Below, in pieces: positions 39,958-55,794 of a stretch of DNA of 64,000 nucleotides (its first letter is position 1; every line of letters begins with the position of its first letter). A model generated the notes under the pieces. That model saw only the letters and a list, made by a program, of their open reading frames with translations, searched no databases and was not told where the DNA came from. The DNA is taken from positions 1-64,000 of the IMG/VR virus record IMGVR_UViG_3300002520_000085. One strand, given 5' to 3'. The stretch is from a virus. The translations under genes were made by a program, and so were the position numbers.

Positions 39958-42900
39958 TTAATCCATTTGCTTTTTAGCTATTTTAATCACTTCTTCTACA
40001 AAGTCATCTAAAATATCAAAAGGAATTTGATGATCCATTTCCAATGATAAGCTATAAAAATAGTCATCTAATTCACTCCAAATTTGCTTTTCAATTTCTT
40101 TGTTCAACTTCCAGTCAACGATAGCTCTATTGTTTTCTCTAGTTATATTTTTTATTAATTCTTTAATTTTTAAAGCAATTTCAGCATTTTGCAATCTATC
40201 TCCTAAAAATGTAAACAATTTCGCATTTATAAAATTATAAAATGCTACCGCTATTTTGTTTCCTTCAATTATTACTGGTACATCGTCTTGTTTTCCTGAT
40301 TGGAATCGTTCTTCAAAATCTTTCATTTTGTTTAGATATTCCGTTTCGTCAATACGACTTTGCTTATAATCCAAAATAGTTTCTTTTATTAACTCTGAAA
40401 GTTTTTTATAGAAAATAGGATCCTCATCCATTTTAATGGAAATCCCTTTTGAAGTACGTGCAGCAATATGATCTGCCTTTGCTGCTTTACCAATTAACTT
40501 TTCTACTTCTTCATCTCTCTCTTGTTTATTAAAAATATCAATAGGTTCTGTTATTCTTAGAACTTCACCATCTGTCGTAATGTGCTTATCAATCAGTTTT
40601 TGAACTTGAGTTTCATAAGCTTTAAAATCGATTTCATCATAGTACCTGCGTTTAACATCAATTCTTAACTGCACAAAAAACTTAATATCTTTTTTATACT
40701 TTTCAATAACAATATCATTTTTCACATCATTAAATTCTATGGTTGCCATTGCAAGACCAAAGAGCCTAACAAATTTGGATAGTTTTTCGTAAAATAAATG
40801 ACGTTGTTCTTCATCCCCTAAATGAACCGCATAAGCTTCGGTGTCGTATTTGTTTTTTATTCCTGAAAAAATATTCCAAACCTCTGAATGCGATTGTGGT
40901 AAATCTTTAATAATATCCTTTACATTCGTTACCGAACCTTTAACATCCTCTGGGTTCATTTCATCAGATCCGGAATAGATTTCTATTGCTTTATCTAAAT
41001 TTTCCAGGTTACCATAGTAATCTACAATTAGTCCATAATCTTTACCTTCAGCCAATCTATTAACTCTAGCAATCGCTTGCAAAAGAGTATGTTCCTTTAA
41101 GCTTCTTGTTAAATAAAGAACTCTATTTTTAGGAGCATCAAAACCTGTTAATAATTTATCTACTACAATAATAATTTCAGGATCATCTTGTTTCTTGAAA
41201 GCATTAATTATAGACTTTTCGTATTTTTCTTGAGTACCATATTTATCCATCATTGCTTTGTGAAATGATAAGACTAAATCTTCGTTTTCCTCAAAAGCAT
41301 CTTCGTGATTCTCACGAGTATCAGGAGCAGAAATAACAACATCTGAAGTCACCTTACCAATCTCATTAAGATATTTGCGGTATAAAATAGCTGTTGTCTT
41401 ATTAGGTGCCACCAACTGAGCTTTAAAACCAGTACCTTGAATGAAATTGACAAAATGCTCTGTTATGTCCCAAGCTCTATCATAAATTACTTGGTCTGCT
41501 TTATTAATGGCATTTTTGGAACTGTATTTTCTTTTTAAACCCGCTTTTCCATACTTCGTTAATGGTTCTGCTACTTTCTCAAAGAAATTATCAAGAGGCT
41601 TCTCATTTACAGTAATAGAATTGTGACGCCCTTCATAAAGTAAAGGAACGACAGCCCCATCTTCTACCGCATCTTTAATTGTATATTCATCTATTACCCC
41701 ACCAAATTTATCTGCTGTATTTTTTTCAGACTTCATTAAAGGCGTCCCAGTAAATGCAATAAAACATCCATTGGGGAAGGTTTTCTGCATTTTGACATTG
41801 AACGTTTTGTACTGACTACGGTGACCTTCGTCTATTAATACAAAAATCTCCGAAGAAGAAAACCCATCTGGCTCTTGATTGACTGCGGCTTTGAACTTAT
41901 TGATAATGGTAGTAATAACCGCATCTGACGTACTTTTCAATAATTCTATAAGATGCTTACCTGTGGCCGCTTCTTCCACAGGAATATTGCATTTCTGAAA
42001 AGTTTCTGTAATTTGAGAATTAAGATCTATACGGTCTGTAACTAATATTATTTTAGGATTTTTAATTTTTTTGCTCAAAGCAATTTGTTCCGCCAACATT
42101 ACCATTGTCAGCGATTTACCACTCCCTTGTGTATGCCAAATAACACCACCTTTTCTCTTACCAGAAGCCCCAATATCTTCAATTTGCTTAATGGTTTTTG
42201 TTATTCCATAATATTGCTGATATCTTGCTATCTTTTTAATACCTTCATCATATAGAATAAAACTAAACATCAACTCCAATAACCTTTTGGGATCACAAAT
42301 ACTGTATAGTAATTTGTCTTGTTCAGTAACCGCTACTTCTAACTTACCCAATTCTTTGAAATGCTTGATTGTGGGCCAATATCTTGTTTTAAAGATCTCT
42401 GTATGGCTATCGGTTGGCAGCTCTTGTTGTTTTAGATCGAATAAATTTTGAAAAAAAGACGCCTCTTTTTTAGCACTCGTAAACTTTTCTTTCCAAACCG
42501 ACCAGAATTTTGCAGGCGTAGCTGTTGTAGCATATTTAGCATCGCTTACCGCAAGTGATAAAAGTATATTAGAATAGACATATAAATCTCTGATACCATC
42601 TTCTTGTTGGTTGCGCAAATGTTGAGAAATCCCTTCTTCTACAGGCTGTTTTATCGAATTAGACTTACACTCTATAACCACCATAGGAATACCGTTTATA
42701 AACAGTACAATGTCTGGTCTATAACTGTCTGAACGATTAGAACGTGTTACCGAAAACTCCTCTGATACATGATAAGAATTGTTTTGTGGGTTTTCCCAGT
42801 CGATGTACTTGAAAGAATAGCTTTTACGGTCTTGATTAATGGTTTGGTCGAAACTTTTACCTAAAGTAATTAAATCATAAAAATGCTGGTTGGCATTAAT

Positions 42901-43167
42901 AAAACCCAGATGAAGTGGCAATTCTTTTAAAGTTTCGATAGCCAAGTCTATGTTACTCTCTGAAAAGTCGTGAGTCTGCCCTTTATAATCTATTTTATTG
43001 TTTTTTTTGAGCTGTTCTCTAAGTATATCGGTGAGGATTACATTCGTTTTTCTGTTGTCACGAAGCTCTAAAGCTTGATCGGGAGCTATATAAGTATAAC
43101 CCATTTTTATCAGCATTTGCAATGCTGGTATTTGACTTATATGATCTTCTGTGTATGATGGTGTCAT
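39958..43167 (-). CDS. hsdR: Type I restriction enzyme R subunit (HsdR)
   Basis: Walker A GSGKSLTMVMLAEQ, DEAH-box VLIDEGHRSQ, helicase motifs, 1069 aa. Confidence 0.9.
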   Translation of the reverse strand: MTPSYTEDHISQIPALQMLIKMGYTYIAPDQALELRDNRKTNVILTDILREQLKKNNKIDYKGQTHDFSESNIDLAIETLKELPLHLGFINANQHFYDLITLGKSFDQTINQDRKSYSFKYIDWENPQNNSYHVSEEFSVTRSNRSDSYRPDIVLFINGIPMVVIECKSNSIKQPVEEGISQHLRNQQEDGIRDLYVYSNILLSLAVSDAKYATTATPAKFWSVWKEKFTSAKKEASFFQNLFDLKQQELPTDSHTEIFKTRYWPTIKHFKELGKLEVAVTEQDKLLYSICDPKRLLELMFSFILYDEGIKKIARYQQYYGITKTIKQIEDIGASGKRKGGVIWHTQGSGKSLTMVMLAEQIALSKKIKNPKIILVTDRIDLNSQITETFQKCNIPVEEAATGKHLIELLKSTSDAVITTIINKFKAAVNQEPDGFSSSEIFVLIDEGHRSQYKTFNVKMQKTFPNGCFIAFTGTPLMKSEKNTADKFGGVIDEYTIKDAVEDGAVVPLLYEGRHNSITVNEKPLDNFFEKVAEPLTKYGKAGLKRKYSSKNAINKADQVIYDRAWDITEHFVNFIQGTGFKAQLVAPNKTTAILYRKYLNEIGKVTSDVVISAPDTRENHEDAFEENEDLVLSFHKAMMDKYGTQEKYEKSIINAFKKQDDPEIIIVVDKLLTGFDAPKNRVLYLTRSLKEHTLLQAIARVNRLAEGKDYGLIVDYYGNLENLDKAIEIYSGSDEMNPEDVKGSVTNVKDIIKDLPQSHSEVWNIFSGIKNKYDTEAYAVHLGDEEQRHLFYEKLSKFVRLFGLAMATIEFNDVKNDIVIEKYKKDIKFFVQLRIDVKRRYYDEIDFKAYETQVQKLIDKHITTDGEVLRITEPIDIFNKQERDEEVEKLIGKAAKADHIAARTSKGISIKMDEDPIFYKKLSELIKETILDYKQSRIDETEYLNKMKDFEERFQSGKQDDVPVIIEGNKIAVAFYNFINAKLFTFLGDRLQNAEIALKIKELIKNITRENNRAIVDWKLNKEIEKQIWSELDDYFYSLSLEMDHQIPFDILDDFVEEVIKIAKKQMD

Positions 43168-43203
43168 TTATAATATTGGTTTGGTTCAATAGTATTTTTA
43201 TAA

Positions 43204-44337
43204 TTATGCTGATTGATGAACAATATCAATCGCTTTCACAAAACCTCCAAGTTCTCTATTTTGGTCGAATATAGTCATCGATAAATCTGCTTTAGGCATC
43301 CACACACGACCTAGTTGAACAGCTAAAGAAACAGGCATTGCAGGAAAAATATTTAATATAGCTTCTTGACCGTGTAATCTTTTAATTTCTCTATAAGCTT
43401 CTTTCATTTTTTCTCCAAAATCTGTAATCTGTTTACGTGATTTTACGAAGTCGTTATCCGGATGATCTATTTTGATGCTGTATATAGAGGTATCATCTCC
43501 TAAAACAGAAGTTATACGATCATCTGTAATTGTATCACTTAATTCAATCTTTAAAGCAATATTTGTTTTGACTTCTGCTGCTAGTTCTAAGTTATATACC
43601 GTATCGATATCAGCTTCAAAATTCCAAGTATCTGGATTTCTCCTTTTTTGACGTACATCTACAGAATAGATATCATTTAACATTGTTCCTAATTTCATTA
43701 AAATAGGCATAGGCCCAAATGGAAACAATGAAATATGCTTTATCTCTCCACTGTTTAATAATGGAAATAAAAAACGTTCAAATTTTTGATTAAGATTCCT
43801 TAATTCATCAATCCAAAAATTTGGATCTGAATCTTTATTTAAAGAATTAATGACCCCTAAATCAATATTTTTAGCTTCGGCTGGATAATAATCAGGAGCT
43901 AAAAATTGACTAACAATACTATATTGAACATTGGGTGTGTGAACTCCGATATTCATATTCAATGTTACAATATGACTTTGTTTATCTGGAGCAATTGCAC
44001 AAGCATTTGCAATACGATTTTCGTGCTCCGTTTTCATTTCTACTAATAAACTTTCAGGATTACCTGCAACATCATCCCTATCAATCAAGCGATGGTGTGT
44101 ATCGCATAATAACATTAAATTTGAAATATCATCGGCCAATTGTACAGATCTTGTACTACAACCACGTGGTCCACCTGGACTATCGGCCACGATATGAGCT
44201 ATATATGATTGATTGAAATTTCTTTTCGTTAAAATGTCAGTATGTAGAATTTTATTACAACCTCTGTATTGGCATCTACCACCAGAGATAGACCAAAGCA
44301 TGTATTTATTTTTATCTGAAATAGATGTCACACTCAT
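43204..44337 (-). CDS. HNH nuclease fusion protein (N-terminal HNH, ~250-aa C-terminal domain of unknown function) between hsdS and hsdR
   Basis: CQYRGCNKILH...AHIVADSPGGPRG...NLMLLCDTHHRLID is a canonical HNH. ATGA overlap with the hsdS stop; 36 nt from the hsdR start. Confidence 0.65.
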   Translation of the reverse strand: MSVTSISDKNKYMLWSISGGRCQYRGCNKILHTDILTKRNFNQSYIAHIVADSPGGPRGCSTRSVQLADDISNLMLLCDTHHRLIDRDDVAGNPESLLVEMKTEHENRIANACAIAPDKQSHIVTLNMNIGVHTPNVQYSIVSQFLAPDYYPAEAKNIDLGVINSLNKDSDPNFWIDELRNLNQKFERFLFPLLNSGEIKHISLFPFGPMPILMKLGTMLNDIYSVDVRQKRRNPDTWNFEADIDTVYNLELAAEVKTNIALKIELSDTITDDRITSVLGDDTSIYSIKIDHPDNDFVKSRKQITDFGEKMKEAYREIKRLHGQEAILNIFPAMPVSLAVQLGRVWMPKADLSMTIFDQNRELGGFVKAIDIVHQSA

Positions 44338-45533
44338 ACCGTACGTACTTTACCGGTTAATAATTGCTGCATTAATCCTTTCTTTTGAAGTTTTAAAGCC
44401 TCTAATTTTTGTTGGTATTGTTTTACTTCTTGGTTGGCTGTATTTAGGATTTCTGCAATGGCATTTTGTTCTTCTAATGATGGATTTGGTAAAATAATCG
44501 TTGAAAAATCATCGTAACTAATATTTTTACCGTCTCTGATACCAATTACAGCAACTGATAAGCGTCCAATTAAATCTTCACTTTTGAAATAATATTTATA
44601 AAAATCATCATTAATTGGATTAATCGATTTTAAAACAGTATAAGCTGGACTTACAAGTCCTGTATATTCAGAATATTCAATACCACCTTGGAATGATCTT
44701 AAGCTAATTACAAAATCACCTTTTTCAACTAATTTATATGTCTTTAAACTACCAGAAGGCATTGTTACACGAGTTTCAATCATATCTCGAGGAATCATAC
44801 CAAATTCTTGAGTTGCTGATAATAATACTGAATCCTCTGGGTTATTTTTTATCGAAACACTTTTAAAAAGTTCATTCGCTAAAGATTTTATAAATTCTTT
44901 ACCCTCAAATCCTTTCACGCGCTTTTTACCTGTCAACAACGAAAACGCTAACGCCTTATTTCTAGCTTCTAGTTTTTTGATAATGGAATCGGTTTCTTGG
45001 ATGGCTTTATCCCACGTAGACAATACATCGGCAATTTTTTGTTGCTCTGGTAGTGGTGGAAGTGGGATATCAAAATCATTAATTGCTTTTGTGTCCAAAA
45101 ATGGTTGTGCTGCACCAACAAATGCTTTTTGTTTTTGCTGTTCAATGTAATTTGATTGTAAACTTAAAAAGATATATGATTTATTTTGATTTGCATTTAC
45201 TCTAATTCTTGGGGCGTTATAGCTATGTGGCAAATTAAACCATTCACATTTAGGTAGAAAAACAGCTCCAGCTGTAGCACCAGTTCCTGCAAATAAAATA
45301 TCTCTCTCATTCAAAAGAAAGTTATTTATGTTTTCAAAATCTTTTATGTAAACTGGTTTATCTTCAAAAAAATCATTAATGCGTATAAAGCGTATGCCTT
45401 CTTCATTAACATATTCTAAATATTGAGAACCAGCACCTCTTTTAACTTGCCCAATATCTTTTATTTTTACTAATTCCCAATCTGTAGGGATAGGTCCGAT
45501 GGATGTATTTTTATATTGTGTTGTTTTTATCAT
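44334..45533 (-). CDS. hsdS: Type I R-M specificity subunit (HsdS), two target-recognition domains
   Basis: Conserved repeats LPPLPEQQKIADVLSTWDKAIQ and LPNPSLEEQNAIAEILNTANQEV, 399 aa. Confidence 0.85.
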   Translation of the reverse strand: MIKTTQYKNTSIGPIPTDWELVKIKDIGQVKRGAGSQYLEYVNEEGIRFIRINDFFEDKPVYIKDFENINNFLLNERDILFAGTGATAGAVFLPKCEWFNLPHSYNAPRIRVNANQNKSYIFLSLQSNYIEQQKQKAFVGAAQPFLDTKAINDFDIPLPPLPEQQKIADVLSTWDKAIQETDSIIKKLEARNKALAFSLLTGKKRVKGFEGKEFIKSLANELFKSVSIKNNPEDSVLLSATQEFGMIPRDMIETRVTMPSGSLKTYKLVEKGDFVISLRSFQGGIEYSEYTGLVSPAYTVLKSINPINDDFYKYYFKSEDLIGRLSVAVIGIRDGKNISYDDFSTIILPNPSLEEQNAIAEILNTANQEVKQYQQKLEALKLQKKGLMQQLLTGKVRTV

Positions 45534-45546
45534 TTTTGTAATGTTT

Positions 45547-46329
45547 TTATGCTAGGTCTTGGTCTGTAATCGTAAAAACAGACTTTATTGCATGTAGTGC
45601 ATCTTCGCTTTTTGCGCCTTTCATTCCCATTGCTTTAAACACATCGGGTGTAGGTAAATCCTCTTTTATCATTTTAAGGAATTCTATCATCAGCTCTTTG
45701 ATGGGTTTTGGCAATTCAAAACGCTCTTCTCCAGTAAATAGCAAAGCTAATTTGAGGCAATCGTTTTTATGCTTTTTTAGGTGTTTGCTGTCTTCTTTGC
45801 TTCCATTAGCAATACGCCCCGTAATGTCTAAATATGCTTTTGCCTTTAAAGCAATTAAAGCTTCTGTATTTGCACGATGCACATCTGACACGATCACACT
45901 ATGTTCTCTAATAAATTGATAGAAGGTGTCGTCTAATAAAATGGCAGATAAGCTACTTAAATCATCATCTGCCGGAATAGGCGTTAAGTGCATCTCAGGA
46001 TCTAATTCAATCAAATCTGGTTTACGTGAAAACAATTCTATCTGCTGTGGAAAATCTTCGTTTTCCGGATCCATAAATCGATAGTATTGGCGTTCGTCGC
46101 TGCTTATTTCTTTTCGGTTGTAATTGCCCTCTTTTATAAATTGCCAAAATTTTTTTAAGAATTCCGGATTTAAAGCTTCTATCACTAAAATGATGTCAAT
46201 ATCTTTTGTGGCACGAGCTACTAATCCTTCATCTTCTATTATCATATCGCAAGCAGTACCACCGATAATGATATAATTATCTGGAAACGCAGCAAAATAT
46301 GCTTTAAATTGTTCTATGCCTTTTACCAT
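45547..46329 (-). CDS. AbiEii/MenT-like (DUF1814) nucleotidyltransferase toxin candidate
   Basis: IIGGTACDMI...ATKDIDIILVIE fits the GGTAL...DIDF pattern of the AbiEii NTase family. 260 aa. 7-nt overlap with the upstream gene. Confidence 0.45.
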   Translation of the reverse strand: MVKGIEQFKAYFAAFPDNYIIIGGTACDMIIEDEGLVARATKDIDIILVIEALNPEFLKKFWQFIKEGNYNRKEISSDERQYYRFMDPENEDFPQQIELFSRKPDLIELDPEMHLTPIPADDDLSSLSAILLDDTFYQFIREHSVIVSDVHRANTEALIALKAKAYLDITGRIANGSKEDSKHLKKHKNDCLKLALLFTGEERFELPKPIKELMIEFLKMIKEDLPTPDVFKAMGMKGAKSEDALHAIKSVFTITDQDLA

Positions 46330-47366
46330 ATAAATCGATTGATTAAGTGTTCTAATTCCATTTGCACACGTTCGTCTTGATCTTCTTTATAGGTTAAGAA
46401 TAAAGAGATTGGATCGACCTTGTCGTATGCTGATTGACTGATTCTGTTGATGAAACTTGGATCGTATTTCCATATTTGAAATAGATATTCTCCACCAAAT
46501 TCATTGAATGTATTGGGTTGGTTATTCTTCTTGATTAAGTTAAATGTTTGATTATCTATAGCAAAAGCCATTTGATTGCTTGGGTTTATATTGGTGTACT
46601 CCGTTAAGGCAGTATTTCCTGCTTTTAATAATGGTAAATTCCAATTGAAATTATATGCTACAAAATACTCTTTAGCAATGGGATTGATAAAAATGTTGTT
46701 TTGTAGTCCTTTTTCCCACAATGTTTTTCTATCGAATTTGAATTGGAACATTTTATAACGACCACGCTGTACGATTTCTATTAATTCTAATTCGGCTAAA
46801 TTTTCGACTGCACGAGAAACGTTGATGGTATTTACCTGAAATTGGTTTGCAATTTCTTTTAATGGAATATCTTCGATTGTATATCGATTATTTGTATTCA
46901 GCAAATGTGCAATGACTAATACCTGAGCAAAAGGTTGCAAGGTTTGTGCAGTACGACCTTTTGTTTGGTATCTGTATTCTGTAAAATCGATGAATACGTA
47001 TGGTATATACAGTTGCTTAAACGGTACGATAAATGCTCGTTTTTTTTCGATTAATCGTTTACGATTATAGGCTTCCATTTCGTCCACACAAAGAATAATG
47101 GGTTGATTAATTCTTTCTTCAATATTTGCTAGTTGTGTGTCTATGGCTGCAATTGTAAACTCGTCATCCGTTTCTGCATAGGCAATGACGAATTTTTTAT
47201 TTAACATCAACAACTCGTACCACTCATAGGCATTACGTAAATATATGGGTAATTGATTAAGGATATCCTTGCTTAAAGGGCTTACCTCGCAATGAATTCC
47301 TATCGTTTCGTTGATGTAATTTTTTAGCTGAATCATAATACTAACATTAAAATTGCACGATAACAA
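46323..47366 (-). CDS. AbiEi-like / wHTH-containing putative cognate antitoxin-regulator
   Basis: wHTH-like KEIANQFQVNTINVSRAVENLAELELIEIVQRGRY; overlaps the downstream NTase gene; 347 aa. Confidence 0.3.
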   Translation of the reverse strand: MLSCNFNVSIMIQLKNYINETIGIHCEVSPLSKDILNQLPIYLRNAYEWYELLMLNKKFVIAYAETDDEFTIAAIDTQLANIEERINQPIILCVDEMEAYNRKRLIEKKRAFIVPFKQLYIPYVFIDFTEYRYQTKGRTAQTLQPFAQVLVIAHLLNTNNRYTIEDIPLKEIANQFQVNTINVSRAVENLAELELIEIVQRGRYKMFQFKFDRKTLWEKGLQNNIFINPIAKEYFVAYNFNWNLPLLKAGNTALTEYTNINPSNQMAFAIDNQTFNLIKKNNQPNTFNEFGGEYLFQIWKYDPSFINRISQSAYDKVDPISLFLTYKEDQDERVQMELEHLINRFIW

Positions 47367-47401
47367 ATATAATGTTATTATGCAGAAAAAGCGTTACTAA
47401 T

Positions 47402-48136
47402 TTAAAAATGAATTATTTTGTTGCAATCCTTAATTTCCGAAGACTTATCCAATTGATTGGTAATTAAGCTCGTGTTCCTTATATTTATCATCTCATTGGC
47501 TGTATGTGTATGACCATAAATCCAATACAGTGGTTGGTATTTTACAATCAAATCCTCTAAAGAAGATCCATAAACAGTACTGAAATTTTCTTGTTCCGGA
47601 ATAGATAACATTACAGGACAATGATGTGTTACTACGATGGTTTTACTGGGATTTGCAGTTTGAAATTTATGCTCCAAAAAACTCAATGCATCGTTATGAA
47701 ATGCATTATAATCGAACGCATCTATATAATCCTCTTGGTTTTTAATGTATTTAAAATCGTTGATGTGATATTGTAAAAACCATCTTTTGTTTAGGTCTAC
47801 ATTAGACCATAAAGTAGAGCAAATCAATTCATAATCCTCTAGCAACACCGATTGGTTATTGATTAAAAATACATTTTCTCGAATGGGAATATTACAGGAT
47901 TGATATGATTGGTAATCTGAGCCATAAAATTCATGATTTCCAGGAATCCAAAAAACTTTAGTAAAAGCCTGACTGATATGATCTAGAAAAAAATTAATTT
48001 GATCGATCTGGTTTAATGGTATAATATCGCCCGCAAGAACTAAATAATCCGCACAAGGTTGAACAGGATATTTTTTAAAAAACATCCTGTTGTTAAGTGA
48101 TTCTAAATGAAGATCTGAAATGTATTGTATTTTCAT
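47402..48136 (-). CDS. calcineurin-like metallophosphoesterase
   Basis: MPP motifs SDLHLE, LAGDI, GNHEF, VTHH, GHTH. 244 aa. ATGA overlap with the upstream 144-aa gene. Confidence 0.8.
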   Translation of the reverse strand: MKIQYISDLHLESLNNRMFFKKYPVQPCADYLVLAGDIIPLNQIDQINFFLDHISQAFTKVFWIPGNHEFYGSDYQSYQSCNIPIRENVFLINNQSVLLEDYELICSTLWSNVDLNKRWFLQYHINDFKYIKNQEDYIDAFDYNAFHNDALSFLEHKFQTANPSKTIVVTHHCPVMLSIPEQENFSTVYGSSLEDLIVKYQPLYWIYGHTHTANEMINIRNTSLITNQLDKSSEIKDCNKIIHF

Positions 48137-48570
48137 TATTTTTTTGAATTACCGTGTTCTACACCACCACCATGCCATTCGCCAGTTACTAACCAAATTT
48201 CGTAATGATATAGCCATTCTATTGCCCATGGAATAATTGTACTTGCAATCATTTTACCTTCATGCCACTCCTTATCTTTAGGATAATATAAACACAACTC
48301 TTGTAAATCATGATTGTATACATGCTTGAGTCTGGTTTCGTTTTCAGGTAAACTTAATTTCTCAGGATTAACAACAAATGTTTTTGGTTTGCTACTCACT
48401 TCATAAATTATCTTAACTGTATATTTATCTCCCAGAGGAGATGACTTTAGTACACCTTCCCAAGTAAATCCCTTATTCTTGTTAAGAATTAATTTCGATT
48501 CAGGATAATACTGTTTTAATAAACGTAGTTGTTCTTTTAAAGGTATTTTATTAATCTTCTTCAATACCAA
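48136..48570 (-). CDS. hypothetical 144-aa protein in the NTase-phosphoesterase cassette
   Basis: ORF overlapping both neighbours; no recognisable motif. Confidence 0.5.
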   Translation of the reverse strand: MVLKKINKIPLKEQLRLLKQYYPESKLILNKNKGFTWEGVLKSSPLGDKYTVKIIYEVSSKPKTFVVNPEKLSLPENETRLKHVYNHDLQELCLYYPKDKEWHEGKMIASTIIPWAIEWLYHYEIWLVTGEWHGGGVEHGNSKK

Positions 48571-49837
48571 AAAATTTATGGGGTTTAATAGAATTAATTG
48601 ATGTTAAACCAGCCGTAGCTGTACCCACAACTCCGAGTTTACGATCAATATTATTTTGTCCTGATTCCGTTAATAATCTACTACGATTAGCATACTCGCT
48701 AAACGTTTTAAGTACAGCATCTTTTCCGAATGAATTTTTAAGCGATTCAGAAATATTTTGCAATCCTGTTTTAGATTGCGCATCTCTTAAATCAGCTTTC
48801 ACTTGCTCTAACCATCTGTAAAAATTTTCACGTCTAACCGATCCTTCGTCGTTCCAACGATCTGCAAAATTTTCTTTCCTATTCGTAGGGTTGGAAATCC
48901 ATTCAACATCTTTGTTTAAGTTAGGATCAAAAACAAATTCTATTTCATCTTCCATACGATTAATTACCCCCCACAATGCATCAATTAACTCTTCTTCCTC
49001 TCGGTACGCACGAGCTGCTAAAGTTGTTATGATACAAGAAATAGGTTTTTGTTTTTTCACATCTTCATCTTGTTCATGAGTAAAATAAATATCACGATGT
49101 CTCTTTAAAAGTTGAACCACTTTTTGTAGTGGTAAACGTGCCTCTTGATACTCTGGTACAGGCTTTACAGCTTCATTCAATGAAAATGTTCTTTTTTTCA
49201 TCCCTTTAATTGTTTTAGCTATATTCATAAACCAAATAGCATACCCATAAGGATTGCTTTGTTTCCAAAATTCTGATCTAACTTCAGTATCATACCCACT
49301 CTCTTCTTTATCAGTAATACTTAATCGTAGTTGATCAAAATCCTCGTAACTATCCGCACTCATTGCCTTTTCCAATATGATTGCATAACCAGAAGATATT
49401 AATGCTGGTAAAATATCCATATGATATCTTTGATTCGCAGATTCAGTATTTTCTCTATAATTTAGTGTCCAACATCTACGTCCTTCTTCATCCAGCATTT
49501 CCCTATAGCGATCACTTTCTTTTAAACGATTACCTACAGCATTTTTTAAATGATATTGTGCCCAATTTTCTGGTTTTCTCTTGAATTCGCATACAACATC
49601 TAGATCGATATCATCATTAGGATCTATAGGCTGGATTGTTGTACCGATAATAAATGAACCTTGAGGTTTAATGTATGGCTGATAAACAGATAATGATGAA
49701 TTATCATTAGATAAAAATTTCCCGACTGCTTTATAACTTTGAATAGCAGCTTCATGTTGCGACTTAGAAATACTAAGATTTTTCACTAGAGTTTCTAGTA
49801 TTTCGTTAAATTGAAATTTGTGATTTGGTGTATTCAT
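48551..49837 (-). CDS. cGAS/DncV/OAS-like nucleotidyltransferase (CD-NTase-like)
   Basis: GSFIIGTTIQPIDPNDDIDLDVV (GS...DxD) and downstream HMDILPAL (third-Asp h-D-h-LPA pattern of OAS/cGAS-type NTases). 428 aa. 21 nt after the hsdM stop. Confidence 0.55.
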   Translation of the reverse strand: MNTPNHKFQFNEILETLVKNLSISKSQHEAAIQSYKAVGKFLSNDNSSLSVYQPYIKPQGSFIIGTTIQPIDPNDDIDLDVVCEFKRKPENWAQYHLKNAVGNRLKESDRYREMLDEEGRRCWTLNYRENTESANQRYHMDILPALISSGYAIILEKAMSADSYEDFDQLRLSITDKEESGYDTEVRSEFWKQSNPYGYAIWFMNIAKTIKGMKKRTFSLNEAVKPVPEYQEARLPLQKVVQLLKRHRDIYFTHEQDEDVKKQKPISCIITTLAARAYREEEELIDALWGVINRMEDEIEFVFDPNLNKDVEWISNPTNRKENFADRWNDEGSVRRENFYRWLEQVKADLRDAQSKTGLQNISESLKNSFGKDAVLKTFSEYANRSRLLTESGQNNIDRKLGVVGTATAGLTSINSIKPHKFFGIEED

Positions 49838-49858
49838 TATTAGTTTTTTTTAAAAAAT

Positions 49859-51388
49859 TTATATCAAATTTAATTCTTTAAGATATTGCTCCATCTTAGC
49901 TTCTGTTTCTGCTAATTGTTCTTTCAGGTTAACAATGTCTGTATGCACGTCTTTTATTTCTACTTGTGCTTCTTCCTCAAAAGTATCAATATAACGAGGG
50001 ATATTAAGGTTGTACTCATTATCCTTAATATCTTGAAGCGTTGCACGATAAGAAAATTTATCGGTAAGAACTTCACCTTTTTCGGTTTCTAAAGATGGAA
50101 GAGCTTTGAATTTTTTGAATTCGGCAACAATTTTATCAATGTTCGCATTGGACATTTTGTTTTGGTTTTTCCATGATTCAAACTCCGCACTCGCATCAAT
50201 AAACAATACGTCTTTATTTGCCCCTTTAGCTTTGTTGAATAAAAGAATAGCGGCAGGAATTCCTGTTCCATAAAATAAATTAGCCGGTAATCCAATAACT
50301 GCTTCTAGTAAATTTTCGTCTATTAATTGCTGACGAATTTTTCCTTCACTACTTCCTCTAAACAAAACACCGTGCGGAACAATAACGCCCACTTTACCTT
50401 TATCTTCGAAAGTAGTTTCTATCATATGCGTAATAAATGCGTAATCTCCTTTTGATTTTGGAGGCACACCACGATGGAAACGATTGAACTCGTCTGCTGC
50501 AGCCTGTTCTGCGCCCCATTTATCTAAAGAGAAAGGAGGATTAGCCACCACAATATCAAACTTCATTAAAGCATCTGCTTCTTTTAGTTGTGGATTATTA
50601 AGAGTATCTCCCCATTCGATTACCGCATTATCTTCTTCGTGCAAAAACATATTCATACGAGCTAAAGCCCAAGTAGAACCATTATTTTCTTGTCCGTACA
50701 ACGCATAATTTTTACCTTCGATTTCTTTTGCTACTTTAATGAGCAAAGAACCAGAGCCACAAGCAGGATCGCAAATACGGTCACCAGCTTGAGGATTTAT
50801 CAATTTAGCCAATAATGTACTGACTTCTGAAGGGGTATAAAATTCACCAGCTTTTTTTCCTGCTTCGCCCGCAAACATCGAAATCAAATATTCATAACTG
50901 TCGCCAATCACATCATTGTTTGCCAAATGCGAGGGCTCTAAATTAAGTTCTGATAAATCTGTTAAAAGATTTTTCAAGATTTGGTTACGTTGTTTAGTTG
51001 GACCAAAAGCCGTTTCCGAATTGAATGAAATACTACGAAAAACCATTGCCAGTTTTGAACGGTTTTCATCTTCCAATTTCGTTAAAGCGATGTCTATTAG
51101 TTCGCCAATGTTGCTTTCGTTTCGGTTTTCAAATAAAAAATCGAAAGAACTTTGTTCAGGTAAAAAGAAACGCTCCCGTTTTAATTGACGTTTTACCATA
51201 TCTTCGTTGCCGTCGTACTTTATTCTTAATTCATTGGCTTTCTCTTTCCATACGTCCGATAAATATTTAACGAAAAGCAAGGTTAAAATATAATCTTTAT
51301 AAGAGCCACTTCCCATTACAGGTCTTAGAGAATCACAAGCTTTCCAAACGATTCTATTAATGTCTTGTTGTGTTAGTTTTGTTTCCAT
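49859..51388 (-). CDS. hsdM: Type I R-M DNA methyltransferase subunit (HsdM), N6-adenine
   Basis: DPACGSGSLL (motif I) and VVANPPFS (motif IV NPPF), 509 aa. Confidence 0.9.
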   Translation of the reverse strand: METKLTQQDINRIVWKACDSLRPVMGSGSYKDYILTLLFVKYLSDVWKEKANELRIKYDGNEDMVKRQLKRERFFLPEQSSFDFLFENRNESNIGELIDIALTKLEDENRSKLAMVFRSISFNSETAFGPTKQRNQILKNLLTDLSELNLEPSHLANNDVIGDSYEYLISMFAGEAGKKAGEFYTPSEVSTLLAKLINPQAGDRICDPACGSGSLLIKVAKEIEGKNYALYGQENNGSTWALARMNMFLHEEDNAVIEWGDTLNNPQLKEADALMKFDIVVANPPFSLDKWGAEQAAADEFNRFHRGVPPKSKGDYAFITHMIETTFEDKGKVGVIVPHGVLFRGSSEGKIRQQLIDENLLEAVIGLPANLFYGTGIPAAILLFNKAKGANKDVLFIDASAEFESWKNQNKMSNANIDKIVAEFKKFKALPSLETEKGEVLTDKFSYRATLQDIKDNEYNLNIPRYIDTFEEEAQVEIKDVHTDIVNLKEQLAETEAKMEQYLKELNLI

Positions 51389-51389
51389 A

Positions 51390-51974
51390 TTATTTGCTAA
51401 AATTATTAATGATTTGATTGAACAATACTTGTTTTTTTTCTTTCAACTGTTCAAGAATTTCTATTTCTTTTTTATGAATTTTATACATATCTACAATTTT
51501 TTTCTGCATTTCCATCGAATGTATAGGAATTTCAAAATCTAACAACTCTTTCTTTCTTATCGATGGAATGGAACTTCCTGCGCTTACCTGATTAAAATAG
51601 GAAATACTTTTGGAGTGGTTTAAAATACACGTCACATAATCTGGTAAAACCACCGTTGAATCTACTTTTATAATATAGAAAATAGAAGAAGCAACAGCGT
51701 CTCCCATTTCTTTATCGTATTTAAAAGCAAAAAACTTCATTCCTTTGCTTACAAAAAGAATTTCATCCTGTCTAAGAAGGATATTTTCTGAAATTTCATC
51801 AGCATTTACATAAGAATCTACATTATTCAGATACATTCCATTGTCTGAAAAGTTTTTCACTTGCAGATAAGGAATCCCCTTTTTATTAGATGCTTTTATA
51901 TATTGCCCGAAACTTAAAGCACAAATGTTTTGCAACTTTGTTTTGGTAATTTTAATCATTGTAGAGTTTTTCAA
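51390..51974 (-). CDS. hsdS: half-size HsdS (single TRD plus conserved C-terminal repeat)
   Basis: IPSIRKKELLDFEIPIHSMEMQKKIVDMY...ILEQLKEKKQVLFNQII is the conserved HsdS region; 194 aa; stop is 1 nt from the hsdM start. Confidence 0.7.
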   Translation of the reverse strand: MKNSTMIKITKTKLQNICALSFGQYIKASNKKGIPYLQVKNFSDNGMYLNNVDSYVNADEISENILLRQDEILFVSKGMKFFAFKYDKEMGDAVASSIFYIIKVDSTVVLPDYVTCILNHSKSISYFNQVSAGSSIPSIRKKELLDFEIPIHSMEMQKKIVDMYKIHKKEIEILEQLKEKKQVLFNQIINNFSK

Positions 51975-52114: not shown

Positions 52115-53269
52115 TTACCTTCTTGGTTTTATGTTTTTTTGAACATTCTCTATTTCTTGTGATTGTCTATTATTATTCCCACCACCCAACAAATTCAAAA
52201 GATAAGCTGTTTTATTTGAATCCTTAAAAACCTCCTCAAAAGCCGAAACAGGAATTTGATTTTCTTTTGAAGTTTTTTCCAATATCTCAATCATTTTATC
52301 TTTTCGTTCAGCATCGTTTAAACTGTGAAGATTCGGAATTTTTATACTTTCTTGTATGATGGCTTTTTTAAGTGTGTTTTCTACAGATCCTAAATATTTT
52401 TTCTTTTCAACAGCAAAAGCCTTTTCATTGGTCAGGAGTGTGGAGTTTTTGCTTTTGAAAAAGAAAACTTCTTTTTTTAGACTTTCAATCTTGGTATTGA
52501 GTTCTGCTATCTGTTTCTCTTTGGAGTCCAGTTCTGTTTTATTTTTAAGAAGTTGAATATTATTTGTTTTGATTGCCTTTTTGTAGTTTTCAATGGTTTT
52601 GTCCGTTTTTATTTTCTGAAAACCAAGAAAATCGGATTCTTTAACAATTAAATCTTCAGATTTTTTAGACTCCACCTCTTGTTGCATTTGGCTGTATCGT
52701 TCCTCCAAAATTTTCAAATCTTCTTCCTTTTTCTTGATTTTAAATTCAACTGCTTCTAATCTTGCTAACGAACCTGAAATTCCTCTTTCCATTTCCAAAC
52801 ATTCCGCCGCTAAATCCTGCATTTTAGAATAGTGAAAAGATTGATGCTTTAGCATTTTTCCAGTTTCCAAATCTTGCCAATCTGCAACTAAATGAGCGTG
52901 ATAATTCGGTTTCCATTCTTTGGTGTCTTTATCATAATGACCTTCATCTTTATGTATGGCAATCTGAAAAATTCGGATTTTAAGTTCTTCTTCTAGTCTT
53001 TTTGACAAATTATGCAAATCCTGCATCGTCGTATTTTCTTTAATTACAACCACAGCTTCCCGAACTGGCATTGCATTTTTCTGTAATTTTCTTCCTGATT
53101 TTTCTTTGCAAAAAGCTTCTATTTTTAACAGTCGATCAGCAATCTTTTGTTCCATCCAATATTCATTTTTGTGAGTTAAATCTTTGCGGATGTAATCAAA
53201 AGATTTCTTTCTGAAATTATGAATTTCGGAATCAGATTTTACTACTTTAAAATTGATGGAAGTTTTCAT
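52115..53269 (-). CDS. MobV-family (Mob_Pre) mobilisation relaxase
   Basis: N-terminal relaxase domain with NYHAHLV histidine motif; coiled-coil C-terminus; 384 aa. Confidence 0.7.
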   Translation of the reverse strand: MKTSINFKVVKSDSEIHNFRKKSFDYIRKDLTHKNEYWMEQKIADRLLKIEAFCKEKSGRKLQKNAMPVREAVVVIKENTTMQDLHNLSKRLEEELKIRIFQIAIHKDEGHYDKDTKEWKPNYHAHLVADWQDLETGKMLKHQSFHYSKMQDLAAECLEMERGISGSLARLEAVEFKIKKKEEDLKILEERYSQMQQEVESKKSEDLIVKESDFLGFQKIKTDKTIENYKKAIKTNNIQLLKNKTELDSKEKQIAELNTKIESLKKEVFFFKSKNSTLLTNEKAFAVEKKKYLGSVENTLKKAIIQESIKIPNLHSLNDAERKDKMIEILEKTSKENQIPVSAFEEVFKDSNKTAYLLNLLGGGNNNRQSQEIENVQKNIKPRR

Positions 53270-53279
53270 TTTTATTTAA

Positions 53280-53420
53280 ATTTGATGTATTAAACCTGTA
53301 ACTTTTTTATTCAGGGTAACTAACAACCTGTATCTATTTTATACAGGGTAACTGATACCCTTGCTTTATTTTAAAAGGTTCTGGGGAATTAAACCTTGTA
53401 CTATTTTTTACAGGTTAAAG
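53280..53420. promoter_or_regulatory. oriT-like region with CAGGGTAACT / AACCTGTA repeats upstream of mob
   Basis: ttcagggtaactaacaacctgt...atacagggtaactgatacc...aaaccttgtact...tacaggttaaag. Confidence 0.4.
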
Positions 53421-53527
53421 CCTCGCAGAGCGAAGAAGAAACTTTGTTGGGAGAGCATCGACCTTCAAAGTTGCGAATGAGCTCCTAACTTCTGCGTGTA
53501 GTTGGTAAAAAATATCCGCACGCATAA

Positions 53528-54333
53528 TCAGCGTTTTCTTTTGTAAGTTTGATGAGCTTGATTGATTTCGTTTTCCTCCTGTTCTTGTTTTGGGTTCAAT
53601 TCTATCCGCTGTTGTTTTTCGATTTCAGTGTTATTTCTGAAAACGAAGTAGTCATTCAAATCTTTATGAAGAGCATAAATTTCGGAATGATCTTTTGCTT
53701 CGGGAAATGATTTCAGAATTTCATTTTTACAAGTTTCACCTGCTTTATCATTGTCTAAAAACAAATGGATTTCGGAATAATTTTTTAAATAGCCTTTAAA
53801 AAATGGTTTCATCTCCACAAAAGACAAAGCATCCATAAATCCTTCAAAAACGACTATTCTTTTTCCTGTTTCATTTTGACCTTGGCTTTCATTATTGAAA
53901 TTTACAATTGAAATATCCTTTTTCAGAACTGATCCTTTGTAAAAGGAATTTCTAAGCTCCCAACCTCCAGAAAAATTTTCAAAACCAATAGCGTAAAGTT
54001 TCTTTTCTCCAATGGTAAAATGAATTTCTTTAACTAACGGATATACTACTTTTGAAAGCCCTCTTTGATGAAGATAGCTTTTAAGATGTTCGTTATGGAG
54101 TTTTTTGATTTCGGTGATTTGATAATTTGGTTTTGAATTTATTGAATGAATAACATTCTGCTGTTGAAAAGAAGAAAAATTTTGCTTTTCTGCCCGAGTT
54201 TAAAAGAGGCTTGGGTTTCTGTGGAAAAAGGATTAAGATACCAAGCTTCTTTTTCATTTTGTTTCGTTGGATGGTGTCCGAGTGAAATAAGGACTTCTTC
54301 CAACTTTACAGAGTTGAATTGGTTGCAGTTCAT
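53528..54333 (-). pseudogene. degraded toprim/primase-like gene (fragments 54139-54333 and 53528-53836 in different frames)
   Basis: 53528..53836 carries the TOPRIM-like LFLDNDKAGE. The 54139..54333 fragment is primase-N-like. No intact ORF spans them. Confidence 0.4.
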
Positions 54334-54339
54334 AAGTGT

Positions 54340-54600
54340 AAAATGTTAGGGGTTGATTTTTGGAAATATTTTGATGAAATGATGAGAAAACCGTATAATG
54401 ATTTGACTGTAAGTAAAATACATTCTCATCAAAGTATCATCATCTCATCAAACTTCAAATTTTTTGCTCATCGGTCTTTCATCAAAAATCAAGGTTTTAA
54501 AATTTGATGAGGATTTTGATGAGATATAAATTGTTGATTTTCTTCTTATTATCAATTAATTCATCATTTCATCAAATTTTTGAAGAATAAAATCTTTTTT
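54340..54600. repeat. iteron-like TCATCAAA/TTTGATGA repeats (at least 8 copies, both orientations), putative element ori
   Basis: tttgatgaaatgatgag, catctcatcaaacttc, tttcatcaaaaatc, atttgatgaggattttgatgagat, ttcatcatttcatcaaattt. Confidence 0.55.
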
Positions 54601-55794
54601 TATCGTGAAGTAGCGTCCTGTTTTATTCGATTGATAAAAACTTCCACTATAATCAATATCATATTTTATGTAAGCCAAAGAGTTATTTTGTGGTTCTAGT
54701 TTCCAGCTTTCTTTAAGGAGTTTTCTGATGTCGTTTACAGTCCAATAATGGTTTCTGAACATTCTTCCGAGCATATTGAAAATATCTTGCGGAATGACTT
54801 GGATTTCTTTTTCTTCGGTACTCTCAAAAAACTCGTACAAAAGCTCAATAATTTTTGATTCAAGTTTGTTATTATTCTTCCATACTAACTTCTGTAAAGC
54901 CTTTGTTCTTATCTCGGAATCAGTAAACCACATTCGGGTTTGTTTCTGGCTAAAGAACGATCTTTGAATCAGATAGCGAAGGAAATAGGGAATTTCTTTA
55001 ATTAGGTTTTGCAGGAATTCAGTATTCTCTGTTTTTATAGATTTAACTTTGATAATCCAAAACCGAATTTCTTCTTCATCAATCTGAATAAAATTATCTT
55101 CATTGTTGGAACAAAGAATGAATTTTCCAAAAAATTCAACTTCCTCACGATCTTTTCCTTTCGCTTCTTTCTTGTCTTTATCGGTTGTGGAAAGGTATTT
55201 TAATCGTTCTGTGATTTCTTTTTTATCAAAAAACACTTCATCAATAGCTACAATGAGCATTGAAGCCCAATCCGAATTGAATTGACTGCTGAATGAATCT
55301 CCTTTAATGTAGGTCATATTCAACCCGAAAATGGATTTGAGCCATTTGATAAAAGTGGATTTTCCCGTAGAACGCTCTTTGCTTACCAAACATAAAATCG
55401 GAAGCATTTGGGTAGGTTTTTCAAGCAAGATTTTGATATAATCTAAACCCAACTCAAGCTGTTCTCCGAAAATATGTTCCATAAAGTTCAGGGAAAACTG
55501 AATTTTTTCTTTGAGAGCATCTGAATTTAGGCTTTCTTCAATTGGTTGATAAGGAATTTCATTGTATATATTGTAAAATCCTTCAATTATTTTTTCATAA
55601 TTCAGATGATTGGGAATACAGCAAAAACCGTCATATTTCGGAACTTGTGAAACATAAGTTTTTCCGTAGTCGCTGATAATGGTTTCCCGATTCCAACGAA
55701 CCAGTATGGAAATTTTATCGCCTGAAATTAAGGGTTTTTCTATGGTTTTGTAGTAGGTGGTTCCTACTCTTAGGTAAAGAATTTTTTCGCTCAT
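54556..55794 (-). CDS. P-loop NTPase replication protein (VirE / primase-C-terminal-like)
   Basis: Walker A ERSTGKSTFIKW and Walker B-like LIVAIDEVFF; 412 aa; adjacent iterons. Confidence 0.55.
   Translation of the reverse strand: MSEKILYLRVGTTYYKTIEKPLISGDKISILVRWNRETIISDYGKTYVSQVPKYDGFCCIPNHLNYEKIIEGFYNIYNEIPYQPIEESLNSDALKEKIQFSLNFMEHIFGEQLELGLDYIKILLEKPTQMLPILCLVSKERSTGKSTFIKWLKSIFGLNMTYIKGDSFSSQFNSDWASMLIVAIDEVFFDKKEITERLKYLSTTDKDKKEAKGKDREEVEFFGKFILCSNNEDNFIQIDEEEIRFWIIKVKSIKTENTEFLQNLIKEIPYFLRYLIQRSFFSQKQTRMWFTDSEIRTKALQKLVWKNNNKLESKIIELLYEFFESTEEKEIQVIPQDIFNMLGRMFRNHYWTVNDIRKLLKESWKLEPQNNSLAYIKYDIDYSGSFYQSNKTGRYFTIKKDFILQKFDEMMN

Follow-up and report, generated by a model that had tools for sequence, protein, structure and literature searches.

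An E2-CBASS (type II short) with its probable effector beyond hsdS in a type I restriction-modification operon, and a neighbouring putative AbiE/MenAT-like cassette led by a phosphoesterase

The window, which is the whole 64,000-nucleotide stretch of viral DNA analysed here, carries a known defence system, E2-CBASS, in an unusual split layout, and next to it a cassette that is modestly novel. The cyclase and its stand-alone E2 protein are encoded on one side of hsdS, the specificity gene of a type I restriction-modification (R-M) operon, and the nuclease Cap5 is encoded on the other; together they form a type II-short (E2) CBASS that is split around hsdS within the operon. We place at about 80% the probability of the full reading, in which this CBASS (cyclase and E2 in a first cargo slot, Cap5 in a second) and a separate cassette of a metallophosphoesterase (MPP), a winged-helix (wHTH) protein and a nucleotidyltransferase (NTase) are two cargo modules of one R-M operon.

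All of these genes belong to a single, tightly packed predicted operon on the minus strand (39257–51974), which is carried by an integrative mobilisable element. From hsdM through the YgjP-like gene, the gaps and overlaps between genes range from -20 to +65 nt. The scaffold is a type I R-M system made up of a half-hsdS, hsdM, hsdS, hsdR and a YgjP-like peptidase gene, and it has two cargo slots: the hsdM–hsdS interval (slot 1) and the hsdS–hsdR interval (slot 2). The operon begins with the half-hsdS (51390–51974), the product of which is a single-domain, HsdS-like protein (Pfam Methylase_S, 1.3e-6; PADLOC Specificity_I, 2.5e-17), and this gene stands upstream of hsdM in most of the related R-M scaffolds with a covered upstream flank. 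This is followed by hsdM (49859–51388), an ORF for the 509-aa methyltransferase, and the equivalent 509-aa gene in contigs with an identical cyclase has the precomputed Pfam domains HsdM_N and N6_Mtase. The full, two-domain hsdS (44334–45533; Methylase_S, 2.3e-29, in two stretches; Specificity_I, 3e-89) divides the cargo slots. Here, hsdR (39958–43167) is an ORF for the 1069-aa restriction subunit, with HSDR_N, ResIII and SWI2_SNF2 precomputed by Pfam for the equivalent 1069-aa gene of near-identical contigs. The last gene (39257–39955) encodes the YgjP-like metallopeptidase (Pfam YgjP-like, 4.8e-53), and in related scaffolds it comes after hsdR too. A repeat search of the half-hsdS against hsdS produced short, chance-level inverted repeats only and hence no evidence for an hsdS shufflon. 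In a scan of 38.8–52.4 kb for sigma-70 promoters and terminators, sites were no commoner than in shuffled sequence, and Bacteroidota promoters fall outside the models of that scan.

The earlier note described a three-gene cassette (47402–49837), and its ORFs are present on the minus strand, in slot 1, with lengths of 428, 144 and 244 aa. The cyclase and MPP motifs claimed for them are present too and are conserved among homologues. The tight packing is confirmed as well: the cyclase gene begins 21 nt after the end of hsdM and shares 14–20 nt with the E2 gene, and the stop of E2 and the start of MPP share one base (TAATG). The 428-aa protein (48551–49837) was correctly taken for a cGAS/CD-NTase-type enzyme, as it matches the PADLOC Cyclase model (PDLC00780, 7e-124) and Pfam SMODS and DncV-like_NTFase; it is a CdnG-like, cGAS/DncV-like CD-NTase of CBASS. 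The catalytic core comprises G60-S61, D78-x-D80 and H139-M140-D141-I-L-P, and in the alignment of homologues G60-S61, D78, D80 and D141 are invariant. Matches in the PDB are 9woo_A (2e-54) and SmCdnG (8hsb_A, 3.3e-39). With SmCdnG as one of its two closest solved relatives, the cyclase would be clade G-like, an indirect assignment; clade G accounts for 74% of E2-CBASS cyclases (bioRxiv 10.1101/2022.05.25.493364; PMC12948482).

Further support for the E2-CBASS identity comes from the C-terminus of the cyclase, which reads H-x-F-x-G424. H420, F422 and G424 are invariant in the homologue alignment and are followed by two to four variable residues, which in the window are IEED. G424 corresponds to G406 of SmCdnG, where the HMMER alignment to 8hsb_A stops, and the conserved motif with its short tail therefore matches the published processing of SmCdnG at G406/E407, which was reported together with a thioester at C101 of SmE2 (bioRxiv 10.1101/2022.05.25.493364; PMC12948482).

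The 144-aa protein (48136–48570), which had been left as a protein of no assigned function or a sensor, is instead a stand-alone CBASS E2, that is, a Cap2-like E2 domain alone (PADLOC E2 PDLC00863, 1.1e-47; precomputed Pfam PF26395, E2-CBASS). It matches SmE2 of Serratia (PDB 8hsb_B) at 7.8e-18, and Cys93 is aligned to the catalytic Cys101. The start is a TTG, giving 144 aa, and gene callers pick the second TTG, which gives 142 aa. Neither an E1 (ThiF) nor a JAB domain occurs in the scanned products of the operon or in the precomputed Pfam domains of the equivalent hsdM and hsdR. The view that the locus does not match a canonical CBASS is thus not borne out, as the cyclase–E2 pair fits E2-CBASS, or type II short (bioRxiv 10.1101/2022.05.25.493364; PMC12948482).

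The absence of a SAVED, STING or TM effector beside the cyclase, also claimed, holds literally for the adjacent genes, but an HNH-SAVED nuclease, Cap5, which the earlier note left unconnected, is encoded in the same gene string (43204–44337; PADLOC Effector/Endonuclease PDLC00739, 5e-144; SAVED_HNH, 1.5e-123; Pfam SAVED, 1.3e-44; PDB 7rwk_A, 2.5e-84). The gene lies on the same strand, 3.8 kb downstream of E2, and its start overlaps the stop of hsdS by 4 nt. Cap5 is probably the effector of the cyclase–E2 CBASS. Counting against the pairing are the four genes between E2 and Cap5.

The steps by which such a system would act are taken from characterised homologues. Here, Cys93 of E2 would attack the C-terminus of the cyclase at Gly424, strip the IEED tail and conjugate the cyclase, and this conjugation would regulate or prime the enzyme. 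In response to phage infection, the cyclase would produce a cyclic dinucleotide, the precedent for CdnG–Cap5 pairs being 3'2'-cGAMP. Binding of the signal by the SAVED domain would then cause Cap5 to oligomerise, and the HNH nuclease would degrade DNA and thereby abort the infection.

How the parts are arranged elsewhere was seen in 80 species-level cyclase loci. Of 78 related loci, 55 have E2 as the gene directly downstream of the cyclase, and Cap5 is directly adjacent in 39 of the 80, in compact Cap5-CDN-E2 or CDN-E2-Cap5 operons. In addition, 23 of the 80 are embedded behind an hsdM of the same family as that of the window, and among these the gene right after hsdS is Cap5 in eight and a CapV-like patatin in 11 (PADLOC Phospholipase, 1.7e-92; the sole slot-2 gene in locus L042). 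Many Bacteroidota share the order hsdM-cyclase-E2-hsdS-effector-hsdR, in which the effector is either Cap5 or a CapV-like patatin, and at least four of their cyclase lineages show it. The R-M-embedded loci do not form one tight clade in a neighbour-joining tree of the cyclases, which is a rough tree without support values. Slot 2 of many patatin loci additionally contains a short CD-NTase of its own or a GGDEF protein, and there the patatin may have a partner other than the slot-1 cyclase.

The recurring split raises the question of a functional coupling between R-M and CBASS. Conceivably, the interleaving itself is functional and type I R-M and E2-CBASS work as one integrated defence unit, in which signal maker and effector flank the specificity gene. 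This seems unlikely; if true, the CBASS would be co-expressed or co-inherited with the restriction complex, or triggered by its activity or failure.

On another reading, to which we give a low probability, the parts are unrelated cargo that share the R-M scaffold by chance: the cyclase–E2 pair would be an orphan or have its effector elsewhere, and Cap5 would be a leftover or respond to a different cyclase. Mosaic identities speak for it: loci L025, L026 and L104 carry a divergent cyclase and E2 (about 78–80% and 56% identity), and their Cap5 is ~95% identical throughout. The swap of cyclase–E2 with retention of Cap5 could reflect a modular exchange of compatible parts, or independence. Across scaffolds the slots house many unrelated defence genes, including pAgo, PDC-S02, PDC-M04 and AbiTii, and in several loci a patatin with a cyclase of its own occupies slot 2 alongside a slot-1 cyclase–E2. 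Against this, Cap5-cyclase-E2 is the dominant compact operon among the relatives (the 39 loci above), and wherever slot 2 of an R-M-embedded cyclase–E2 locus was sampled in full, hsdS is immediately followed by a CBASS-type effector, either Cap5 or patatin. Moreover, Cap5 was never seen in sampled R-M scaffolds lacking a cyclase; among R-M scaffolds sampled independently of the cyclase, it occurs only alongside cyclase and E2 (L104). No other cyclase or effector was seen in the annotated ~35–58 kb of the window.

The four genes that separate E2 from Cap5 are hsdS and the three genes of the cassette (45547–48136). The first of these encodes a 244-aa, calcineurin-like metallophosphoesterase (47402–48136; Pfam Metallophos, 6.7e-14; PADLOC PDC-S10, 6.9e-14; phrog_1649, 9e-43), in which the motifs D8-x-H10, G36-D37, G66-N67-H68-E69, H171 and G208-H209-x-H211 are conserved in the homologue alignment. 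Its AF2 model (pLDDT 92) is closest to Mycobacterium tuberculosis PptH (6unc; E 1.5e-10, TM 0.68), followed by MPPED2, Rv0805, Dbr1 and GpdQ. An Mre11/SbcD-like nuclease was rejected, as Mre11 first appears at rank 24 (E 1.4e-5, TM 0.51) and MPP is a single 244-aa domain with no capping domain. Against the NCBIfam model for CpdA (NF008359), MPP scores 38 bits with a cut-off of 225, in a partial match over residues 29–102, and against TIGR03729 it scores 51 bits with a cut-off of 148. One phage metallophosphoesterase is reported to damage host DNA (PMC12287305), and MPP itself matches phrog_1649.

The second protein, of 337 aa (46323–47336, or up to 47366 if an upstream TTG is the start), has a central MarR-like winged helix and is a putative antitoxin or regulator. 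The evidence consists of weak matches to MarR-type wHTH domains in eight of nine family members (MarR, 3.7e-4) and a weak PADLOC AbiEi match (5.5e-4) over the wHTH. Its gene overlaps the downstream 260-aa gene by 7 nt and is always found with it, and the pair is conserved down to 32–55% identity. A search of PDB sequences returned nothing usable for the 337-aa protein and nothing for the 260-aa protein, whether as a single sequence or as a profile.

The 260-aa protein (45547–46329) is a putative toxin, a DUF1814-superfamily-like (AbiEii/MenT-like) NTase. Pfam, including AbiEii/DUF1814, gives no family for it or for any of nine family members (E <= 1). In its structure model, which is of moderate quality (pLDDT 72) with a poorly modelled catalytic loop, it is predicted to have the NTase fold of solved DUF1814-superfamily members. 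The AbiEii/MenT motifs I to IV are defined as hG[GS]x(~15)DhD with a family-specific Arg in motif II, KLxAaxxR and +DxxD (PMC3985639). In the 260-aa family, I22-G23-G24, then 18 residues, and D43-I44-D45, with R39 four residues before D43, are all invariant, and the resulting R-x-T-x-D-x-D spacing equals that of R63/T65/D67/D69 in AbiEii. L161-K162-A-K-A165-Y166...R172 resembles motif III with a longer spacing, and in the motif IV region, K186-H187-x-x-D190, His replaces the first Asp. This NTase family has >6,700 matches; its members lack Pfam domains, and any name supplied by the source goes no further than "AbiEii toxin".

These three genes travel together. The block of MPP, 337-aa and 260-aa genes was found in five of five loci reached through the 260-aa protein, with or without CBASS or R-M. 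It lies behind E2 (the window, L024–26, L030 and L104), before the cyclase (L033, L047 and L048) or just before hsdR (L056 and L184–188), and it is free of any R-M system in L189, L191 and L192. It stands alone in Algoriphagus pacificus (by CRISPR-Cas), Solitalea lacus (by an IS110 transposase and an integrase) and Belliella marina. A blastn search of the cassette against plasmids gave no match. The segment thus reads as a separate, self-contained AbiE/MenAT-like cassette with a phosphoesterase in front, the function of which is putative.

That the block is instead an accessory of type I R-M, such as a regulator of restriction or modification, and not an autonomous toxin–antitoxin (TA) or defence module, is improbable. 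Most of its occurrences are inside R-M operons of one family, in either slot, and the winged helix of the 337-aa protein would bind DNA, as a regulator might. Neither its free-standing occurrence in the three genomes named above nor the R-M scaffolds of the same family that do without it (e.g. L051, L059 and L069) agrees with this role.

Least of all does the survey favour the earlier proposal that cyclase, 144-aa protein and MPP are one undescribed signalling module with MPP as signal-activated effector or signal remover, which is very improbable. Points in its favour are the one-base E2/MPP overlap, the cyclase-E2-MPP order repeated in L024–26, L030 and L104, the weak, partial CpdA match and structural neighbours that include Rv0805 and MPPED2, both cyclic-nucleotide phosphodiesterases, and Dbr1, a 2'-5' phosphodiesterase. 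However, just 4 of the 80 cyclase loci have MPP directly behind E2, and all four are close relatives, their cyclases sharing at least 75% identity with that of the window. Of 47 metagenome loci seeded with MPP, only 2 contain a cyclase. The 144-aa protein is no sensor but an E2, and MPP has no SAVED, STING or CARF nucleotide-sensor domain. On this co-occurrence, MPP was rejected as effector or signal degrader of the CBASS, and, since MPP keeps its 337- and 260-aa partners before the cyclase, before hsdR and in loci without cyclase or E2, the trio is refuted as a unit.

For the cassette itself, a mechanism is suggested by AbiE/MenAT, where phosphorylation of T65, a reversible modification, neutralises AbiEii (PMC3985639; PMC11375011; bioRxiv 10.64898/2026.01.19.700257). 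The NTase toxin would be kept inactive by antitoxin-induced phosphorylation of Thr41, which MPP would reverse; this is the least secure step of the account. MPP could then be a phosphoesterase dedicated to re-activating a DUF1814-type toxin once it has been phosphorylated, a step left open by the AbiE/MenAT field. Alternatively, MPP might undo the nucleotidylation of a target by the toxin. About two thirds of MPP homologues (~40% identity) have no wHTH and NTase neighbours, so MPP is able to work alone.

Tools and readers that expect contiguous operons would call the complete E2-CBASS of the window incomplete or novel, and, as the same split occurs in many Bacteroidota, this amounts to a systematic blind spot for defence annotation. 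This family of type I R-M operons is a two-slot carrier that exchanges defence cargo, including CBASS halves, pAgo, Abi genes and candidate PDC systems. The widespread cassette of MPP, wHTH and DUF1814-like NTase, in turn, offers a natural test for dedicated, re-activating phosphoesterases of AbiE/MenT-type toxins.

The closest known counterpart of the cyclase–E2 pair is the Serratia marcescens E2-CBASS, SmCdnG–SmE2 (PDB 8hsb; bioRxiv 10.1101/2022.05.25.493364; mLife PMC12948482). Both have a CdnG-type cyclase of ~400–430 aa followed by an overlapping, stand-alone E2 of ~145–160 aa, aligned catalytic cysteines (C101/C93), a C-terminal Gly with a short removable tail (G406-E/G424-IEED) and neither an E1 nor a JAB partner. 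They differ in their low sequence identity (E 3e-39 and 8e-18) and in the place of the effector, which in the window is four genes off, beyond hsdS, with the whole system embedded in a type I R-M operon. With CdnG–Cap5 CBASS (Vibrio cholerae VcCdnG–VcCap5, PMC12804361; SAVED effectors 7rwk and 8fm1) the window shares a clade-G-like cyclase and an HNH-SAVED protein aligned over nearly its full length, and the same logic would be expected, namely binding of a cyclic dinucleotide by SAVED, oligomerisation of Cap5 and degradation of DNA. In the window, however, cyclase and Cap5 are parted by hsdS and a three-gene cassette, and 3'2'-cGAMP, the precedent, is a candidate product.

The cassette resembles the type VII (formerly type IV) TA systems AbiE and MenAT (PMC3985639; PMC11375011; bioRxiv 10.64898/2026.01.19.700257) in having a wHTH gene that overlaps a downstream gene for a ~260-aa NTase. 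In addition, the NTase has the hGG...R-x-T-x-D-x-D pattern, which includes the Arg specific to the family and places a Thr where the phosphoacceptor lies, and its best structural matches are in the DUF1814 superfamily; the protein sizes would fit the COG4861–COG4849 branch. Unlike these systems, it has no Pfam AbiEii match, a deviating motif IV and a wHTH that is central, not N-terminal, and a conserved metallophosphoesterase before the pair was not found in the cited AbiE/MenAT literature. PptH (6unc), Rv0805 and MPPED2 are, like MPP, compact, single-domain metallophosphoesterases with a full set of metal ligands (TM 0.68 and about 0.55), but sequence identity is 13–17% and the fold of MPP does not reveal its substrate. 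Finally, TgvAB of Vibrio cholerae VPI-2 (PMC11411939) is like the window in placing independent defence genes, with complementary protection, between the hsd genes of an active type I R-M operon, whereas the window has two slots and one multi-gene system, the CBASS, that is split by hsdS, a layout that recurs in several cyclase lineages.

The operon is an unbroken run of minus-strand genes (51974-39257) in which the spacing of neighbouring genes is -20 to +65 nt. In order of transcription, it comprises a single-domain HsdS-like gene (half hsdS, 51390-51974), hsdM, the gene for a 428-aa cyclase (48551-49837), that for a 144-aa protein with a TTG start (48136-48570), that for a 244-aa calcineurin-like metallophosphoesterase (MPP, 47402-48136), genes for a 337-aa and a 260-aa protein, the full hsdS (44334-45533), the gene for a 377-aa HNH-SAVED protein (43204-44337), hsdR and a YgjP-like peptidase gene. 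The cyclase and 144-aa genes overlap by 14-20 nt, and one base is common to the stop of the latter and the start of the MPP gene (TAATG). Between MPP and the 337-aa gene lies a gap of 65 nt (47337-47401). The three ORFs from cyclase to MPP, which an earlier note had proposed to be a single signalling module, have the coordinates and strand assigned there. In addition, the motifs read in them are present and invariant among homologues, both in the cyclase (G60-S61, D78-x-D80 and H139-M-D141-I-L-P) and in MPP (D8-x-H10, G36-D37, G66-N-H-E69, H171 and G208-H-x-H211).

The cyclase, which had been recognised as cGAS/OAS-like, is a CBASS CD-NTase (PADLOC Cyclase, 7e-124; Pfam SMODS/DncV-like), and among solved structures it is closest to a cGAMP synthase (9woo_A, 2e-54) and to SmCdnG of Serratia marcescens (8hsb_A, 3.3e-39). 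The 144-aa protein was thought to be unknown and is instead a stand-alone CBASS E2 (PADLOC E2, 1.1e-47; precomputed Pfam PF26395 E2-CBASS), which matches SmE2 in the PDB (8hsb_B, 7.8e-18). In the Serratia system, the E2 cleaves off the residue following G406, forms a thioester through Cys101 and then an isopeptide with G406, and this conjugation regulates the cyclase (bioRxiv 10.1101/2022.05.25.493364; PMC12948482). The window pair is alike in both positions: Cys93 aligns with the catalytic Cys101, and the alignment of the cyclase to SmCdnG ends exactly at G424, the equivalent of G406. Across the cyclase family, the C-terminus consists of an invariant H-x-F-x-G and a tail of 2-4 residues that vary. 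Because the cyclase is a CD-NTase, its partner an E2 and the C-terminal Gly matches the Serratia system, the two proteins are, as judged from sequence, an E2-CBASS (type II short). Several hundred members of this type have been catalogued, with cyclases mostly of clade G (bioRxiv 10.1101/2022.05.25.493364; PMC12948482).

The effector lies further downstream. The 377-aa protein is Cap5, nearly full length (PADLOC endonuclease effector, 5e-144; SAVED_HNH, 1.5e-123; Pfam SAVED, 1.3e-44; PDB 7rwk_A, 2.5e-84). CBASS of the CdnG-Cap5 type has been studied in depth: binding of 3'2'-cGAMP by SAVED switches on the HNH nuclease (PMC12804361). Relatives of the window cyclase were compared in 80 species-level loci. 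The gene directly downstream of the cyclase is E2 in 55 of 78 loci of this set, and Cap5 immediately adjoins in 39 of the 80, forming compact Cap5-cyclase-E2 or cyclase-E2-Cap5 operons. In 23 of the 80, the cyclase is embedded behind a same-family hsdM; among these, the first gene past hsdS is Cap5 in 8 loci and a CapV-like patatin phospholipase in 11 (PADLOC, 1.7e-92). When R-M scaffolds were sampled independently of the cyclase, Cap5 was present only where the cyclase-E2 pair was. We conclude that the window encodes a complete E2-CBASS whose effector is displaced beyond hsdS, the link between cyclase and Cap5 being drawn from their co-occurrence.

MPP was the third member of the proposed signalling module, and this grouping does not hold, as cyclase, 144-aa protein and MPP are not a unit. 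Of the 80 cyclase loci, only 4 have MPP directly behind E2, and among 47 metagenome loci seeded with MPP, 2 contain a cyclase. Instead, MPP opens another, distinct cassette, which is AbiE-like and uncharacterised. The block conserved around MPP homologues consists of MPP followed by two proteins of 334-347 aa and 255-260 aa, whose genes overlap by 7 nt, and each of the five look-ups that started from the 260-aa protein gave it in full. Its position varies: after E2 (the window and comparison loci L024-26, L030 and L104), ahead of the cyclase (L033, L047, L048), immediately before hsdR (L056, L184-188), in R-M operons entirely without a cyclase (L019-L023) and without any R-M system (Algoriphagus pacificus, Solitalea lacus, Belliella marina). 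In A. pacificus (L189, 1-9036), the free-standing block (MPP, 340 aa and 256 aa) lies between a type I CRISPR-Cas cluster (Cas3, Cas5d, Cas7/DevR) and DUF2971 and AAA_21 genes, which is a defence-island setting with no type I R-M system. Of the MPP homologues at around 40% identity, some two thirds occur without the two partner genes, so the enzyme family is broader than the cassette. A metagenome copy with an identical cyclase has an MPP frame shortened to 202 aa (L010, 2550-3158), and no MPP gene is called there.

The structure model of MPP is confident (pLDDT 92) and best matches the M. tuberculosis phosphopantetheinyl hydrolase PptH (E 1.5e-10, TM 0.68), followed by MPPED2, Rv0805, Dbr1 and GpdQ, with Mre11 far lower. 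MPP also matches the PADLOC candidate defence system PDC-S10 and, over its full length, the phage metallo-phosphoesterase family phrog_1649 (9e-43). Since a phage metallophosphoesterase is reported to damage host DNA (PMC12287305), relatives of MPP serve both sides of the phage-host conflict. A MarR-like winged helix occupies the centre of the 337-aa protein. Sequence searches of Pfam and PDB gave no match for the 260-aa protein, whose invariant residues include G23-G24 and R39-x-T41-x-D43-x-D45. The spacing of the latter is that of AbiEii R63/T65/D67/D69. Motif IV of the 260-aa protein, K-H-x-x-D, departs from the AbiEii/MenT family pattern (PMC3985639). The predicted architecture is an AbiE/MenAT-type pair plus a phosphoesterase. 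In AbiEii and the MenT toxins, the antitoxin induces phosphorylation of the equivalent Thr/Ser and thereby silences the toxin, which a phosphatase can reverse in vitro (PMC11375011; bioRxiv 10.64898/2026.01.19.700257). By analogy, MPP would be the in vivo phosphatase that dephosphorylates an AbiE/MenT-type toxin, although we consider such a toxin-reactivating role rather unlikely.

The operon is borne on an integrative mobilisable element whose backbone spans 52115-63230 and encodes a relaxase-like protein (52115-53269), a Toprim fragment (53528-53836), VapE/DUF5906 (54556-55794), an HTH_17 excisionase-like protein (55868-56146), a tyrosine integrase (56952-58193), the anti-restriction protein ArdA (58529-59053) and an HTH-fused C5 cytosine methyltransferase (61719-63230). 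This element adjoins a prophage-like region. The latter (1-36256, plus strand) directly abuts the defence-carrying element and includes a DnaG-type primase (773-4045), a HIRAN-domain protein (25009-26169), a tape-measure-like protein (27885-31340) and, at its end, a tyrosine integrase (35039-36256).

The scaffold order common to this R-M family is half-hsdS, hsdM, a first cargo slot, hsdS, a second slot, hsdR and the YgjP-like gene, and most scaffolds whose sequence reaches far enough upstream have a single-domain hsdS-like gene ahead of hsdM. Cargo in other species includes pAgo, PDC-S02, PDC-M04, AbiTii and SMODS-SLATT, as well as patatin, paired with either a GGDEF protein or another short cyclase. 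In the second slot (L030, 15417-17191; also L032, L033, L036, L048, L053, L056, L061, L062 and L073), the CapV-like patatin, the sole gene there in L042, can have behind it a GGDEF protein with two TM segments (7 loci), another short CD-NTase (7 loci) or both, and the patatin-GGDEF pairing looks like a CBASS analogue using a GGDEF cyclase. Identity to the window is mosaic along the L025 operon (cyclase 78%, E2 56%, MPP 94%, Cap5 95%). Relative to the window, hsdS alleles vary across L001-L005 and L024 (392, 399 or 409 aa, with only 48% identity in L024), while the remaining operon genes of these copies are 94-100% identical, which suggests that specificity domains have been swapped. No long repeats linking half hsdS to hsdS were found. 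The mosaic identity and variable hsdS fit a model in which conserved hsd genes recombine with one another and so exchange the cargo. A rough cyclase tree suggests R-M-embedded cyclases in several lineages.

Type I R-M operons are already known to harbour defence genes, such as TgvAB (PMC11411939), and the joint presence of R-M and CBASS on mobile elements of Weeksellaceae has been noted previously. Functional coupling of R-M and CBASS is conceivable, at a low probability. No description of a CBASS split by hsdS was found in the literature; the system itself is known, and its split layout is unusual but recurs.
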